A stretch of 64,000 bases of DNA from Eledone cirrhosa (Eukaryota), in assembly GCA_964016885.1 (NCBI GenBank), contig OZ024749.1, positions 49,786,001-49,850,000 on the forward strand. The letters are read 5' to 3'. The notes below the pieces were generated by a model. The model saw only the letters and a list, made by a program, of their open reading frames with translations. It was not told the origin of the DNA and did no database searches. A program made the position numbers and the translations under genes. Below, in pieces: positions 8,393-58,266 of this stretch. The stretch's first letter is position 1. The number at the start of each line of letters is the position of its first letter.

Positions 8393-8456
<64 letters not shown>

Positions 8457-8461
8457 ACACG

Positions 8462-8495
<34 letters not shown>

Positions 8496-8499
8496 GAGA

Positions 8500-8753
8500 G
8501 AGATTTTGAGTATATGTTGGTTGTATACCAACACCTCAGTATGCAGGCTGGAGCATTCGACGAAGTGCGCAGGTTGGTTTTGGTTACTCCGGAGTAATGT
8601 ACAATAAAGTAAAGTAAAAGTCAAATGTTTAAAATTTAGCTTCGTTTATTACTGCGACAGTAATAAACGAAGCTAACTTTTAAAAATTTCACTTTTATTT
8701 CACTTTATTTTACACCAGTAATAAACGAAGCTAAATTTTAAACATTTCAGTTT

Positions 8754-8760
<7 letters not shown>
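8500..8760. mobile_element. Family H element that folds back at the predicted HHR cleavage site
   Basis: Homologous to 53968-54120. It stops at ttattactgc (8655) and is followed by two inverted copies starting cagtaataaacg at 8658 and 8716. Confidence 0.8.
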
Positions 8761-8816
<56 letters not shown>

Positions 8817-8818
<2 letters not shown>

Positions 8819-9421
8819 GACGGAAATATGGTACGGAACCAGATGGACCATGACGCACCAAAGTACTCAATATTTAGGGTAGTAGAGTGGGTAATAGGAA
8901 CGAGTAGGACCCCGACGGCTGAGCTCAAGCCGTTTCGACGGCTAATTCTGGACTAAATGACATTTTTTATCCTGGTCAATGAATACCCGAGCTTCTCAGG
9001 CGGTACATTCCATATATGTGATTGTAAAAGCGGTATATTCCATATATGTGATGTAAAAGTGATTGTCACAAGGATTGGTCAAAAGTTTGTTGTTGAGACA
9101 CATAATTCTATCAGGGCATTTTGTGGAAGGAGGGTTAGCTGAACTTGCAAGTAGAAGAAAGAGGGAGAGGAAGTGGGGGAAACCCAGTCGTGCGTCGAAA
9201 GTGACGACTACAGCAGAATCCTAAGGATAAGAGGTCAAGAGGATTAAGTCGAAACAATAAGTAAATGTATGTGGAGTATATCTATATAGAAAAATAAGAA
9301 TGTTAAAAATATAAAAAAACACATTTTCTGGTTAATATTCCCCTACCACAATGTCTAGAATTAGTCTAGAATTTGGCGTCGAAACGGCTTGAGGTCAGCC
9401 GTCGGAGTCCTACTCGTTGCT
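8817..9421. mobile_element. Longest family D copy (hinge about 400 bp)
   Basis: Long arm 8817-8960, interior homologous to 48740-48870, short inverted arm about 9360-9421, with (TA)n on both flanks. Confidence 0.85.
8909..9004 (-). ncRNA. Type I hammerhead, family D (core CUGAGAA here, UUGAAAA in the copy at 48780-48786)
   Basis: accgc CUGAGAA g-ct-cgggtattc ... gaattagccg-t-c GAAA cggcu-ugagcuc-agccG UC^ ggggt. The other copy gives helix I cccc/gggg. Confidence 0.65.
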
Positions 9422-12203: not shown

Positions 12204-13459
12204 ACGGCAGTAGATATTTATTGAATTATCATAGTAATTGAATGTTAGATACACCTCAACCATACATGCGCTTCCCATTTATAATACATCTCGTTTTACA
12301 TTAGTTATTGCTTTTGTATACCTTATTCGAAGTAATATTCAAATAAATGTAACCTACAAGATTCTATAGCGGTTTCTGCGACGCACTTAATTAGTTGTGC
12401 TATCCAAACATTCTATGAGTTCTATATTCAAATATTTCTGACTCCTACAATAAACATGTATATGCTTAAAACTCCTTAGACCCTTGTTAAAGTGAGGAAA
12501 CATAACATTTATGATATATTTAGATGAATAGAAGTATTATAATTAATATTTCCCTTCATCAAGAGATGAAATATTATTTTTATACAAATCTTCCCATATT
12601 TTAGATTGATTAGGCTTAAGTATTAATTATTTAAGCTAATGTTCAATATCTCATATTAGATGTTTAGTAATGATTAATACGAAATGCACTTAAACCGAAT
12701 ACTATATTATAAATTCACTTACATAATCATCGTGTCGTCTCGAGTTCGTTATGAGTCTCTTTTTTATAAAAGGATACCACACAGTGTACGATAGATAATG
12801 ATTACAATATTTTTGAGCAAGAATTCTAGTCCCACACTTTTGAAGGTTTATTATAACATTCTGTGGCTCTTTTGAGCTTCCGCATTTTTCAGTTCTAGTT
12901 TAATATTTTATTAAGGCAAAGCTTGTAATAACTCTAGTTAAACATGATATATTAATAATAATTTATTGTTGTATGTAATTAGATTATATAATTGTTATTT
13001 TATAAATGATCTTATAAATATTATTGTAAGATGTATAACAATATTTTCAGACTTTTAATATAAAAAAACTACAAAAAACAATCAATATTAAATAAAAATA
13101 TTTTACATAATAATTGTTATAGTTGAATTAATAAAGAATAAATATTACATACAAATAGTCTAACATAATAATAAAAAAATAATCTAACATAATAATAATA
13201 AAATAATCTAACATAAAACGAACAATAATATGCACATATATACAAGTAAATATGATACAACGAATATGGTAAGCATGTTATAACAAAATGAAAAAATAAA
13301 AATTTTATAAATCATATATAAAATAACAATATAACTTTCCCTTAATATTATAATTTCGAAGCAGTAAACATGCAATTCAAACCGATACTAGACTTATGGA
13401 GGAGCTGAAATCCTGGTCGAATTTGGCAACACCATATATATATATGTATATATATATAT

Positions 13460-13675
13460 ATAACGAAGGAAATGTGGTAAGGAAACAGGTGGACCATAAC
13501 GCACCAAAGTACTCAATACCTAGGGTAGCAGAGTGGGTAATAGGAACGAGTAGGACCCCGAGGGCTTAGCTCAAGCCGTTTCGACGGCTAATTATGGACA
13601 AAAAAAATAATATATTTTTTAGTCCAGAATTTGCCGTCGAAACGGCTTGAGCTCAGCCGTCGGGGTCCTACTCGT

Positions 13676-13679
<4 letters not shown>
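13460..13679. mobile_element. Family D fold-back copy
   Basis: Same termini as 2116-2321. AT-rich hinge at about 13600-13620. Confidence 0.88.
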
Positions 13680-13742
<63 letters not shown>

Positions 13743-14481
13743 ATTAAGGATACTATTTATGGTTATGTATATATTAAAACTTTTTATAGTTATGTATATT
13801 TTAAACCCTAAACAGTGGAGGTCAGTAATTTATTACTACCTTATTTCCAGTAAGATAAATAGCTCAATGTAATAACATCAGTTGTCTACAGAGCACTTAT
13901 ATAGAATTCACAAGATTCAAAGCTATGTTCAAAGCATTTATTCACTTAAATTGTTTCATCCAAATCTAGGCTTGGAGTCCTCGGAGCATTTTTCAATGTT
14001 TGTACATATAATTGACCTCCTTTCCAACGCAGGAGACATACAGATACATATATATATATTGATGTCCGTTGGAGTGACATATGTTATACTATACTATTTT
14101 TGTACAGCAATTCAAATTCAAAATGAAAATCAAAATAATAAACAAAATCAAAATTACAATACATTCGGCAGATAACACAGATAATGCAAGGGGATAGTTT
14201 GGTAGTCAGATCTAGTAGGTAGTGTATGCGTTAGTTACATATGGAGCATGCAAGTGTGTCTCATTTTTATACGATTATTGTGCGGCAGGGTGTTACATGT
14301 ATTGCAAGCATTTTAAGCGGGTTATGGCGGCTGTAGTGGTAAGGTATTTTTTGTATAGAACAAAAAAGTATGTGTGCAGAAAAATAAAAATAAAGCCTAG
14401 GTTTGGATGAAACAATTGTAAGTGAATAAATTCTTTGAACATAGCTTTGATTCTTGTGAATTCTCTCTCTCTATCTCTATA

Positions 14482-25163: not shown

Positions 25164-25173
25164 GTATATATAC

Positions 25174-25257
<84 letters not shown>

Positions 25258-25260
<3 letters not shown>

Positions 25261-25447
25261 AACCAGTAAGACCCCGACAGCTGAGCTCAAGCCGTTTCGA
25301 CGGCTAATTCAGTCCAGAATTAGCCGTCGAAACGGCTTGAGCTCAGCTGTCGGGGTCTTACTGGTTCCTATTACCCACTCTACTACCTCAAGTATTGAGT
25401 ACTTTGGTGCGTTATGGTCCACCTGGTTCCTTACCACATTTCCTTCG

Positions 25448-25450
<3 letters not shown>
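25258..25450. mobile_element. Family D fold-back copy (short arm on the left)
   Basis: Near-perfect arms with a 6-nt hinge at about 25311-25316. Tail ends ttccttcgtta|(TA)n. Confidence 0.9.
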
Positions 25451-25491
<41 letters not shown>

Positions 25492-32540: not shown

Positions 32541-32765
32541 TGAAATAAAATAAAATAAATCAGTCAAATGTTTTAAATTTGGCTTCGTTTATTACTGCTA
32601 TATATATTTCGGGGACAGCCATCTTTACCTGTGACCTCTTCAGCCAGTCCGAATTAGTGTGGTAGAGACGAGTACACATGTTGTTGAGGTGTATAACTTT
32701 GTCAATACTCTGATATGCCCAGTTCCTGGTTTGGGTTGTTATTTCACTGAGGAACTGGAATCATA
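32541..32765 (-). mobile_element. Family H element segment
   Basis: Homologous to 54065-54285. Confidence 0.8.
32594..32648 (-). ncRNA. Hammerhead, family H
   Basis: actgg CUGAAGA ggtcacag..ctgtcccc GAAA uauaua UA^ gcagt. One mismatch in helix I. Confidence 0.75.
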
Positions 32766-32829
32766 TGAATTCAAACAAACGAATTTCAGCGTCAAATGGC
32801 CTCTTCTCCTCTCATTAGTCCGTTATTAG

Positions 32830-34486
32830 AACATTCCTCAGTCAAAAGTCTATAGAAATTCGTTCTGAGGCAAACCAATCTATAGTTGTTGTTCTTGTTA
32901 TTGTTAGGTACATCTGACTTCTATTCTTGTGTTGGTAGTGGTGTTATTGTTGGAGTCAGCTAAACAAAAAGTGATGAAGTGGTAAAAGGAATAAGATGGT
33001 AAAGGAACAAAATAAAATAAAATAATCGAATAAAATGTGTGTGTGTGTTATACCCATCTAAATGTTATAACGATTTGTAAGGTCAAACATCCCATTGGTC
33101 AGTTTTGGGGGCATTCCTCAGTCCAAAGTCTATAGAAATTCTTTCTGGGGTGAAGCTCCCTGTAGTGTTTGTGTTTGCTATTGTTAAGTACATCTGACCT
33201 CTATCCTTATTTTGGTAGTGTTTTGGTCTTGAGGTCAGCTTATATCTTGATGCTGCTGACAATTTAGAGGTATTTGTGTGTGTGTTTCTTCATCCCTCCT
33301 GCCACCACATCCCGTGGTGGTGGTGGTGGTCGTGGTGGTTTGGAGTTCTGCCATGTATATGAAGATATAGAAGGCAATAAAATGAAGTAAACAGAAAATA
33401 AATAATAAATAGAGAATAAATGAAAAATTAATGAAAAGGTAATGAAAAAGTAATGACAAATGAATATGGAAAATGAAAAATGAAAATGAAAAGTGAAAAA
33501 TAAAATGAAGATTCAAATATAATAAGATAAAATGTGTGTGTGTTATAACCAATCTCAACTTAAATATAAGTATAAGGTGATAAAGTGAAGAAAACAAAAA
33601 AACAAATAACAAATGAATAATGAGAAATCTAAATTGAAAAATCAAAAATCAAGTAAATTAAAATGTGTGTGTGTTATACATATGTTTCCCAAATTATAAA
33701 GGCTGTGTCAGAATCAATCTCTAGGATACCATGGTGTCTGCTCAGCCTGGGTTCGTCCCTATGGCTTGTATTTATATTTAAGTTGAGATTGGTTATAACA
33801 CACACATTTTATTTGATTTTCCTATTTCGTTTTATTCTTTTACCATATTGTGCCTCCTACCAATCTATCCAACATATTTCTAACCTTAAGATTGGTTATA
33901 GCACACACACATTTTATCTTATTTTATTTGAATCTTCATTTCATTTTTCACTTTTCATTTTCATTTTTCATTTTCCATATTAATTGTTCATTACTTTTTC
34001 ATTACCTTTTCATTAATCTTTCATTTATTCTCTATTTATTATTTATGTTCTGTTTACTTCATTTTATTGCCTTCTATTTCTTCATATACCTGGCAGAACC
34101 AACAACACCACCACCACCACGGAATATGGTGGCAGGAAGGATGAATAAACACACAAACCGATACTTCAAAATGGTCAGCAGCAGCAAGACATAAGCTGAC
34201 CACAATACCAACAACACTACCAAAATAAGTGTAGAGGTCAGATGTACTTAACAATAGCAAACACAAACACTACAGGGAGCCTAACCCCAGAAATAATTTC
34301 TATAGACGTTGGACTGAGGAATGCCCCCAAAACTGACCAATGGGAAGTTTGACCTTACAAATATTTATAACTTTTAGATGGCTATAACACACACACACAC
34401 ACACACATTTTATTCGATTATTTTATTTTATTGTGTTCCTTTACTATCTTATTCCGTCTACCACTTTATCCCTTTTTTGAGCTGAC
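32830..34486. repeat. ~1.5-kb imperfect inverted repeat with internal tandem and inverted pieces, family N
   Basis: 32955-33555 is the reverse complement of about 33890-34486. 32830-32960 repeats 33113-33240 (period about 280 bp). 33530-33590 is inverted again at about 33770-33815. Confidence 0.85.
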
Positions 34487-34586
34487 TTACATTAATCCGG
34501 TGTAACCAAACCAATCTAGGCACCTCGTCGAGTGCTCCAATCTGCATACTGAAGTGTTGGGATACAACCAACATATACTAACAAAA

Positions 34587-34590
<4 letters not shown>
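34487..34590 (+). mobile_element. Family H terminal segment, inverted relative to 32541-32765
   Basis: Reverse complement of 8505-8600 and 53970-54066. Confidence 0.75.
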
Positions 34591-34626
<36 letters not shown>

Positions 34627-48536: not shown

Positions 48537-48619
48537 CACTGGGAGATTGCAAACTTGACTGAACATGAATCTGACTGAATATGATTCCTTTGTTATATAT
48601 ATATATATATATATATATA

Positions 48620-48870
48620 TAACAAAGGTATTGGGTAAGGAACCAGATGGACCATGACGCACCAGACTACTCAATACTTATGGTGGTAGAGCGGGAAATA
48701 GGAAAAAGAGCTCAATCCGTTTCGACGGCTATTCTGGACTAAATTACAATTTTTAGCCACGGTCAGTAAATACTCGAACTTTTCAAGGGGATACTTCCTT
48801 ATATGGGAAGATTGTAGTTGTCAAGAGGATTGGTTAAAATGTGTTGTAAACACGAATAATAATATTTCTA
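48620..48870 (-). mobile_element. Family D copy with the HHR 5' core (UUGAAAA) and a deletion removing the cleavage site
   Basis: Minus strand: atcccc UUGAAAA gttcgagtatt...gaatagccgtc GAAA cgga. The GUC and 3' helix I segment is missing. Confidence 0.75.
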
Positions 48871-48891
48871 CAAGTATATATATATATATAT

Positions 48892-49091
48892 ATAACGAAG
48901 GAAATGTGTTAAGGAACTTGATGGACAATAAAGCACCAAAGTACTCAATACTTAGGGTAGTAGAGTGGGTAATAGGAACGAGTAGGACCCCGACGTACCA
49001 TCTCTAATACCGTTTCGACGGCTAATTCTGGACGTCCAGAATTAGCCGTGAAACGGCTTGAGCCCAGCCGTCGGGGTCCTACTCGTTCCTA
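48892..49091. mobile_element. Family D fold-back copy with zero-length hinge
   Basis: ...aattctggac|gtccagaatt... The left arm helix III is replaced by gtaccatctctaata, which also occurs at about 48066-48080. Confidence 0.88.
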
Positions 49092-49123
49092 TATACACAT
49101 ATATATACATGTATATATATATG

Positions 49124-49195
<72 letters not shown>

Positions 49196-50269
49196 TTTAT
49201 ATATATATATACGTTTGTATGCGTGTATGTCTGTTTGTTCGTGTGTATGTATCGGTAAACATTTCAAAATTATATTTCATACGTCTCGTTAAATGGTTAA
49301 ATTTTCTCGGAAAAATAAGATTTATTTTGCTCATACAACAGGCTTTTGTTCTCCGCCATGTATCGTTCAACATATCTATAACCACGTAGTATAAAAGGCA
49401 TTGAACTGTTGGTTGATCCGTAAGAAACTGCAATCTATGAAGCTATTATTCACCAATTACGATACAAAATAAAATAAAATACATGTTATAGCTTCCACGA
49501 ATGCCTGAAGCACAAATGTGACGTAAATTAAATATATCAGTAAATCGGTTCCACGTTTATGATTTTCTTGTCATTGCTTCTCCATTAAATTACTTGTATG
49601 AATTTAAAATGCAACAAATTGCAAGCGAGACAAACAAAGAAATTATAAAATATTGAATACTGAATGTTGCTCATGGCATCAAGATAAAAACTGTTTGTTC
49701 ACAATAAAGACAAATCATTTCAGTAAATCTTTCAATTGTTGTAACTGCAGACTTTTTAGTGAATATTTTTATTTGATTTTTCTAATCTCTAAACAGTTCT
49801 TTCAAGTAGAATTGCATTGATTTTCACCTTATGTTGAACAGCTGGAAAGTATGAACAAAAACACGCAAAAATATTGTAATTTTTCGCGCAAATAGTAATA
49901 AGAACAAACAGTAAAATATTATAGCTTAGATCTGAAGGATTGTTGATATGAATTTTTAAGAAGCAGATGTTATATGTTATACTATTGAAACATTTGGAGG
50001 GATAACAACCATACCCCTCTCCATTATTATAATATTGAAAAATGTCTCGTCCTTATATATTTCATATGTACCTATCATTCCTCTTCCCTTAACCTCCTTT
50101 ACATCTCCCATATATGTCAAATACCAGAGGAGAATAAGTTTGAAGCCAGAGTATATATTAAACTTTTTATGTTATAATATTTCTCTATTCAACCGCGATT
50201 AAAGTGACAAAAATACAATGTCAATAATATCCCTAATTGAGATTCAAATGAATAGACATTTAGCCATCT

Positions 50270-53230: not shown

Positions 53231-53967
53231 CCTCTAGTTAAAATTCATAAAATATTAAACCTGGATATTGAATTATTTATCGATTAGTTTACTTTCATTT
53301 AGAATACTCTATTTAGTCGTGTAGACTGTAGGTATAGCTAGCAAGCTCGAGTGATTCTACAATACTAGGATAGAACTTACGCAAATGTTTTATTACTGAT
53401 TGAAAATCGTTATTTAGCTATCAGTTTAATCATATTGTGTTATAGTCACCCAATATATAGATACGCATATATTAATGTGGCGAGTTGTGACGAGTTTACT
53501 GATTAGATATTTAAGCAATTTGGGTTATGTTTTATGTTTAATTAATATGGATATACATTAAACACCAACGTAAAATACAATGGTGTTTCCAATTATGAGT
53601 CGTAATTGTATTGATTCGTAGCTTTCCGCATTAAACATTCCTCAAGAAAGAAGTAACGTTTGAAGTACTACATTTTATAATTTACATTGCAACATATCTA
53701 TCATAGATTTGGTTCATTGAGTATAATTCTCTATAGAAATCATTACATACAATGTGATATGTTAAGTTAGTCTACTTAATCTCTTAGTCATCAAACACAT
53801 TACTATATATATGTTAAGGAATATTATATACGATTTGTATATGCATGTGAAATAGGATACTAATCAACTATCCTCGCTCCCCATCACCCTCCACATAAAC
53901 TTACACACACATACCCACACACACACAAACACACACACACAGATATATAAATATATATATGTATATA

Positions 53968-54285
53968 GATTTTGAGTTTATGTTGGGTGTATACCAACAC
54001 CTCTGTATGCAGGCTAGAGCACTCGACCAAGTGTGCAGGTTGGTTTGGTTACTCCGGAGTAGTGTAAAATAAAGTTAAATAAAAGTCAAATGATTAAAAT
54101 TTAGCTTCGTTTATTACTGCTATATATATTTCAGTGACAGCCATATTTGGCTGTGACCTCTTCAGGCAGTTTGAATTAGTATGGTATATACAAGTACATA
54201 TGTCGTTTAGCTGTATAATATTGTCAATACTCTGATATGCCCAGTTCCTTGTTGGGTTGTTATTTAAATGGGGTACTGGAGTGAT
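53968..54285 (-). mobile_element. Most complete family H element
   Basis: Contains the segments seen at 8500, 32541 and 34487. Flanked by (TA)n. Confidence 0.85.
54116..54170 (-). ncRNA. Intact type I hammerhead, family H
   Basis: actgc CUGAAGA ggtcacagcc-aaatat-ggctgtcact GAAA uauaua UA^ gcagt. C.C mismatch at pair 4 of helix II. Confidence 0.9.
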
Positions 54286-54299
54286 ATGTATATATATAT

Positions 54300-57928: not shown

Positions 57929-58011
<83 letters not shown>

Positions 58012-58015
<4 letters not shown>

Positions 58016-58180
58016 AACAAGTGTGACCCCGACGGCAGAGCTCAAGCTGTTTCGAATTAGCCGTCGTAACGGCTTGAGCTCTGTCGTTGGGGTCATACTT
58101 GTTCCTATTACCCACTGTACTACCCTAAGTACCTTGGTGCGTTACGGTCCATCTGGTTCCTTACCACATTTCCTTCGTTA
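58012..58180. mobile_element. Family D fold-back copy
   Basis: Short arm starts (TA)n|taggaacaag and the tail ends ttccttcgtta. Confidence 0.85.
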
Positions 58181-58228
58181 TGTATAAATATATATATAAA
58201 CATACTAATAAAATACGAAGATACATAA

Positions 58229-58259
<31 letters not shown>

Positions 58260-58266
<7 letters not shown>

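Follow-up and report, generated by a model that had tools for sequence, protein, structure and literature searches.

Head-to-head junctions at the predicted hammerhead cut of a Hydra-clade Penelope-like element in Eledone cirrhosa: a probable record of occasional cleavage

At 8500-8760 of the window (the whole stretch of 64,000 nucleotides that was analysed), a Hydra-clade Penelope-like retrotransposon, referred to here as family H, has left a short insertion made up of a long arm and two short inverted arms. All three arms have an end at +1/+2, where +1 is the G that follows the predicted cut of the hammerhead ribozyme of the element. In the genome as a whole, the family H copies have a dominant 5' end about 167 nt upstream of the cut, two fixed outer ends and, as a minor class, junctions at +1/+2 that are accompanied by short repeats. 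We infer, with a probability of about 0.6, that the junctions of this minor class record occasional in vivo cleavage of the element RNA, the cut RNA having then been copied; that cleavage gave rise to the +1 class is a reading drawn from sequence patterns.

The features of the locus and the two other family H loci of the window are collected in Table 1. The last bases of the long arm at 8655 are ...TTATTACTGC, and both short arms open with CAGTAATAAACG (8658 and 8716). The long arm thus reaches +1, and the short arms begin at +2, which is a single base in from the predicted cut. The first-pass annotation had reported a copy that ends at the predicted cut and is followed by two inverted copies with a common start, and this arrangement is indeed present in the sequence. 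The long arm shows ~7% divergence from a young copy, and short arm 2 has one 11-nt internal repeat missing. The GA dinucleotide at 8656-8657 is likely to represent untemplated bases. The exact hairpin pattern of the locus was found at 6 loci genome-wide and a control pattern at 0. Several bases differ between the arms, and a sequencing fold-back artefact was rejected on this ground. The comparison of 8500-8760 with the contigs of four runs gave no piece bridging the junction, which is uninformative. Another abundant repeat family with internal inversions was observed in the window at 8759-9021, 2031-2429, 13434-13798, 25165-25489, 48594-49211 and 57929-58263, and one of its copies uses the same (TA)n tract to the right of the locus.

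Table 1. Positions in the window of the three-armed locus, the ribozyme and the other family H copies
Feature	Positions	Strand	Description
(TA)n/(CA)n/(GA)n microsatellite	8395..8499		left part of the insertion target
Long arm	8500..8655	-	G+1 at the predicted cut (8655) through the 3' end of the tail (about +153)
GA dinucleotide	8656..8657	+	matches neither arm
Short inverted arm 1	8658..8715	+	+2 to +58 plus one C
Short inverted arm 2	8716..8759	+	+2 to about +45
(TA)n microsatellite	8760..8817		right part of the insertion target
Third family H locus	32543..34602		long inverted pair
Second family H copy	53967..54288	-	main 5' end (-168/-167 = 54288/54287) through the uncut ribozyme to the tail
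Type I hammerhead motif	54116..54170	-	core, triplet and stems I-III

As the terminal repeat of a Penelope-like retrotransposon, family H resides in a 3.0-Gb, AT-rich host genome, in which its 28-base tail motif has 1892 exact matches. The long copies are organized as repeat-ORF-repeat partial tandems, i.e. pseudo-LTRs (L190-L192), and the insertions sit in (TA)n targets. The ORF starts at +208 and carries the RWK and DKT motifs, the YRDD core of the RT and a GIY-YIG-type C-terminal end. Further features that define the Hydra clade were found as well, namely a CxCX5C linker, the absence of CCHH and a CxxC within the endonuclease; in one long copy (L190) the corresponding stretches are CNCRNPESC and CICKLC, and the GIY-YIG core has no cysteine pair inside. 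By these defining motifs family H is assigned to the Hydra clade, and an assignment to the Neptune clade was dropped on the same grounds. The GIY-YIG match (E 0.001) lies below the Pfam cut-off, and the Pfam search with six ORF pieces gave no match to an RT family; relatives of the protein carry PF26215, and one named relative comes from an octopod. The ORF copies examined are broken by stops and frameshifts. Non-LTR retrozymes are non-coding tandem repeats with a hammerhead in each unit, and family H is not one of them because the element to which it belongs is a coding one and the short copies occur singly or inverted. In the third family H locus of the window the minus-strand arm ends at +56 (about 32543), and the plus-strand arm bears the tail (34487-34602) after an internal deletion. 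At three loci (L188, L193 and L197), family H copies have fragments of RT and endonuclease from other Penelope-like families beside them, (TA)n tracts being places where nested insertions gather. Two tandem repeats (L160 with a period of ~520 nt and L171 with ~620 nt) have a hammerhead in each unit and resemble non-LTR retrozymes. What follows the ribozyme in families H, B, D and E is of two kinds, a short end and a longer one with a tail, and the tails open with a similar ACTCC...GAGT hairpin-like motif.

The ribozyme of family H has the CUGANGA and GAAA core, the NUH triplet and the stems I-III of a type I hammerhead. On the minus strand the core is formed by CUGAAGA at 54165-54159 and GAAA at 54132-54129, and stem I is ACUGC/GCAGU (5 bp). 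Position 11.1 is either U or C, both of which can pair with G10.1. Stem III is self-complementary, AUAUAUAU, at 54129-54122; it is weak, with a palindrome duplex of -3.2 kcal/mol, and stem II is much longer. The ribozyme is predicted to cut after the AUA triplet, between 54121 and 54120. Rfam gave 0 matches in the window at the gathering score, and its 25 weak matches include no hammerhead family, so it is by motif and fold that the ribozyme is called a hammerhead. Other families contribute at least seven more hammerhead-like motifs to the window (+10891, +22848, +36967/-36665, +41502, -45063, -690 and -18937); stem III is palindromic in most of these, and one pair is inverted.

The 5' ends of family H were mapped in 96 copies, taken from the first 100 of the 1892 tail-motif matches and all on one contig (C1). 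Only one copy ends at +2..-2, whereas the predicted cut is read through in 90 of the 96; five copies end at +3..+55, 30 at -3..-164, 24 at -165..-172 and the remaining 36 farther upstream. The main 5' end is situated 167-168 nt upstream of the cut (54287-54288 of the window, minus strand), and a pattern with the same gap range recovered 778 head-to-head junctions near -167 and 25 matches near the cut. An untemplated G was found at 11 of 27 such ends that are not preceded by a templated C (P 0.005), often before ATATG, the loci counted not being a random sample. This G is read as a copied cap, and the -167 end is therefore likely to be the capped transcription start. The site lies within TTCATAT, which we take to be initiator-like. 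A second ribozyme at -167 was rejected since no fitting CUGANGA core could be seen by eye and the untemplated G suggests a cap. Homology at a palindrome or at (TA)n alone was rejected as well, since similar sites hold far fewer ends; such sites are a palindrome of equal length near -82 and the run of AT at -9..-1. An internal promoter is known for Penelope, as described in PMC2377424. The first-pass annotation had taken the predicted cut as the start of the reverse-transcribed template. A local excess of paired junctions speaks for this claim, but the cut is a minor end (1/96 against 24/96 at -165..-172), and single-arm ends show no sharp peak there.

The local excess is clearest where both arms of a junction can be seen. 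In family H, 47 matches were reduced to 42 loci after removal of four unrelated or (TA)-joined matches and one repeat; the locus of the window and one further locus (L031) fall outside these 42 due to substitutions in their anchors. Both arms lie at +1/+2 in 10 of the 42 head-to-head junctions near the ribozyme, and in no more than four in any window of positions away from the cut. Against a null matched for homology length, +1 was compatible with 13 loci versus 7.0 (P 0.014) and +2 with 12 versus 5.7 (P 0.007). Two replicate hammerhead families, D and E, were found by motif, and among the matches listed 47 of 51 loci of family D (three dropped) and 49 of 124 loci of family E (one dropped) were used. 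At the predicted cut, family D gave 28 versus 21.7 (P 0.015) and family E 17 versus 9.7 (P 0.0035) among the loci listed. The combined P for the three families is 8e-5, and the rank-based combined P is 0.03. Equally strong positions were seen in the same scan, at +6 in H (P 0.011), -3 in D (P 0.004) and -14 in E (P 0.0015); -8 in D and +7 in E also stand out, and several of these standout positions lie just 3' of a helix. The double-ended peak was found only in family H, the corresponding counts among the loci listed being 2/47 in D and 6/49 in E, where it is not the top window.

The same junctions may be considered in terms of random truncation followed by joining at short homologies, i.e. 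at the self-complementary GC (+1/+2) and the repeated GCT (+17..+15), the match with the cut being coincidental. Four loci do share a join via a 4-nt match (+2/-15), 11 family D loci share a 3-nt join, and the null is overdispersed, with 10 of about 90 positions at P < 0.02. Five of those 10 positions are, however, +1 or +2, and the excess remains after homology-length matching in H, D and E. The +1 junctions are of blunt, inserted-base and GC-overlap types, several of them thus being formed with no overlap or with added bases, and several jump-back repeats have no GCT match. The longer AT palindrome that adjoins the cut was used in only 2 of the 42 junctions. We regard homology joining as an improbable account of the +1/+2 class. 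The +1 loci differ in their flanks by eye and are thus not one event that was copied; the flank comparison in family D is blurred by shared repeats.

Single arms tell less about the cut. A pattern for arms ending at +11..-34 was evaluated by eye in the first 100 of 375 matches, with ~30 rows that have internal deletions or duplications left out. In this set 12 ends fell at +2..-2 where about 5.4 were expected (P 0.01), an excess that is at most twofold. In the complete list of 71 matches of the main subfamily (by eye, 13 indel rows left out), 12 ends lie in the 4 nt of +2..-2, 34 in the 10 nt of +12..+3 and 12 in the 9 nt of -3..-11, which is a step and not a peak, with no excess of +2..-2 over +12..+3 (P 0.70). 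The end positions assigned by eye agreed with those of a script on 60 of 171 single-arm rows.

A genome-wide pattern for arms that run to the cut region and then return was also used. These jump-back repeats gave eight matches, of which six turn at +1 and two at -9/-10. Among the six turning at +1, five end there and one (L344) reads on past the cut. The control scan gave 0 at -20 and one match turning at -26, the stem II border (-13..-19) being outside its range. In the 100 of 375 single-arm rows that were assessed by eye, terminal jump-backs were seen only at +1, and the repeats at -4, -15, -19 and -22 continue upstream. Similar repeats also occur at the -167 end, and the jump-backs therefore look like a mark of template ends. 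At one locus (L187, G000:C2:266753400-266754600) an arm folds at the -168 site and its partner has four short runs of +1..+15, which resemble telomerase-style repeat addition at a template end. Another locus (L268, G000:C8:4400851) has, at a junction that does not lie at the cut, a 10-nt unit (+9..+18) in four copies and is a counter-example, since it shows that repeats are not exclusive to +1. The breakpoint excess at the cut that the first-pass annotation had proposed to look for was thus observed both in the double-ended junctions (10/42) and in the jump-backs (6/8), and not the absence of an excess by which it had said the idea would fail.

The uncut RNA may also have been the template; the reverse transcriptase would then have paused where the ribozyme core is folded, immediately 3' of stem III. 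Such pausing is in line with the excess of ends found 3' of other helices (+6 and -14/-15 in H, -13/-14 in E), with about seven near-symmetric junctions at -11..-21, with the lack of a sharp single-arm peak and with the L344 arm, which slips at +1 and then proceeds upstream. On the other hand, the stem III that would have to arrest the enzyme is weak, with stem II much longer, the terminal jump-backs in the rows assessed by eye are found at +1 alone, and the arms have their ends exactly on the cut base or one position inside it. Considering these points together, pausing is judged unlikely, though less so than homology joining. The earlier description of the locus as a fossil record of in vivo cleavage is supported in part, by the excess at the cut; cleavage itself is a reading to which pausing is the chief rival.

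The structure of the inverted arms bears on the direction in which they were made. An adjacent inverted arm is present in 50 of the 71 copies truncated within the reference, hence inversion as such is ordinary in family H. The outer end of these 50 arms is at +56 in 35 and at +49..+59 in 43, wherever the inner junction lies, and family H has two fixed outer ends, one near +56 and the other near +153. Because the outer ends of inverted arms are fixed near +56, short arms are best read as cDNAs from a second start; those of the 8500-8760 locus were probably made separately, running from +56 toward the cut, and not restarted from it. This departs from the first-pass annotation, in which the reverse transcriptase restarted or switched template at the cut. 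Its count of two such events could not be retained either. Both short arms carry a C at +34 that is absent from the long arm and occurs in 3 of 307 arms, so that they are not independent witnesses; they represent one RNA template copied twice or a later duplication, and count as one witness. In 38 inverted pairs, the arms of one locus show a mean of 5.1 differences as against 7.8 across loci, with 12 rare variants shared and 83 not shared.

For the direction of the arms and the second short arm only, a different origin was considered, in which the cDNA folded back and copied itself at the cut end, in the direction assumed by the first-pass annotation, or arm 2 arose from arm 1 by later duplication at the DNA level. 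Short fold-back stretches do occur (a zigzag at L289), the C at +34 is common to arms 1 and 2, and the outer end of arm 2 (+45) is unusual, as a stop at +46/+47 was seen in only 2 of about 130 short arms. Fold-back, however, gives no reason for a stop at +56, single arms from +56 with no long partner exist (L185), and self-copying of the long arm would not provide both short arms with a base that the long arm lacks. Duplication is at odds with the extension of arm 1 to +58 (ACA), which is unexpected if an arm ending in (TA)n was duplicated, although ACA may occur in the target repeat. This origin appears doubtful, and separate cDNAs from +56 are preferred.

The following course of events may be proposed for such insertions. 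The element protein would nick both strands of the (TA)n target and prime one cDNA from each; one cDNA would start near +153 and give the long arm, and the other near +56 and give the short arm. Both would run toward the RNA's 5' end and be joined head to head. That 5' end would usually be the capped start at -167, or else a stop at random, and occasionally the ribozyme cut. At a cut end the enzyme might run off, add a base or two and re-engage the same RNA, which would yield a second short arm. The pieces of the 8500-8760 locus are likely to stop at the cut because the template RNA was already cut, and cleavage is likely to be real but a side path that gives dead, promoterless inserts. More broadly, and only tentatively, the head-to-head junctions of Penelope-like elements may constitute a genome-wide record of RNA 5' ends, covering both the capped start and in vivo hammerhead cleavage, where RNAs with paired ribozymes would be cut together and the cut end re-copied in short repeats by a telomerase-related enzyme.

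The activity of Penelope-like hammerheads in vitro is low (PMC4209133), and cleavage is dispensable in PAc, the one reconstituted element (PMC11167929). If the +1 class is real, germ-line RNA is cut at a time when it can still serve as a template, in roughly one copy in 100, and so low a share suggests a brake or a by-product more than a step that the element requires. The head-to-head junctions give the transcription start and both RT starts straight from the genome, and they favour the view that the inverted structure comes from two cDNAs, each primed from a different strand. If the reading of junctions as a record is true, ribozyme activity would become readable from genomes for hundreds of families. 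The inverted structure is already known, and its link to the hammerhead cut was not found in print: in the open-access literature no paper was found that connects Penelope-like breakpoints with the hammerhead cut, and Fig. S2 of PMC11167929 may bear on the point.

In comparison to known systems, family H is closest to the Hydra clade as described by Craig et al. 2021 (PMC8557442), with which it shares RWK, DKT, the CxCX5C linker, the absence of CCHH and the endonuclease CxxC, as well as the C-terminal GIY-YIG, a hammerhead in the repeat, (TA)n targets and partial tandems. An inverted 5'-truncated copy plus tail on one end is typical of Penelope-like elements and is shared by the Hydra clade and family H, whereas the tail is about 97 nt (+56 to +153) in family H and 30-40 in the Hydra clade. 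In PAc, the Poseidon element of Anolis that was studied in vitro (Frangieh et al. 2024, PMC11167929), two internal RT starts bound the tail, both target strands are cut and extended, the targets are AT-rich and the hammerhead lies 5' of the starts, all of which is similar to family H; the ORF starts inside the ribozyme in PAc and at +208 in family H. Cleavage is dispensable in vitro and uncut RNA is dominant in PAc, and in the available text of that report no RNA-seq reads end at the cut, whereas the family H junctions suggest a small class of cut templates.

The hammerheads of Penelope-like elements described by Cervera and de la Pena 2014 (PMC4209133) are of type I with a short stem I and a long stem II, as in family H. 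Their palindromic stem III, which family H shares, is predicted there to act as a dimer. In the available text of the same paper, in vivo evidence for cleavage by these hammerheads is stated to be absent, and circular RNA templates are proposed, whereas the junctions of family H fit linear cut ends. The R2 element (Eickbush et al. 2013, PMC3774820) offers a comparable case, in which the cut of an HDV-like ribozyme is recorded in 5' junctions with untemplated bases and repeats. In R2, as described there, the cut sets the 5' end of every full-length copy, whereas in family H it is seen in ~1 in 100 copies, with the promoter region lost.
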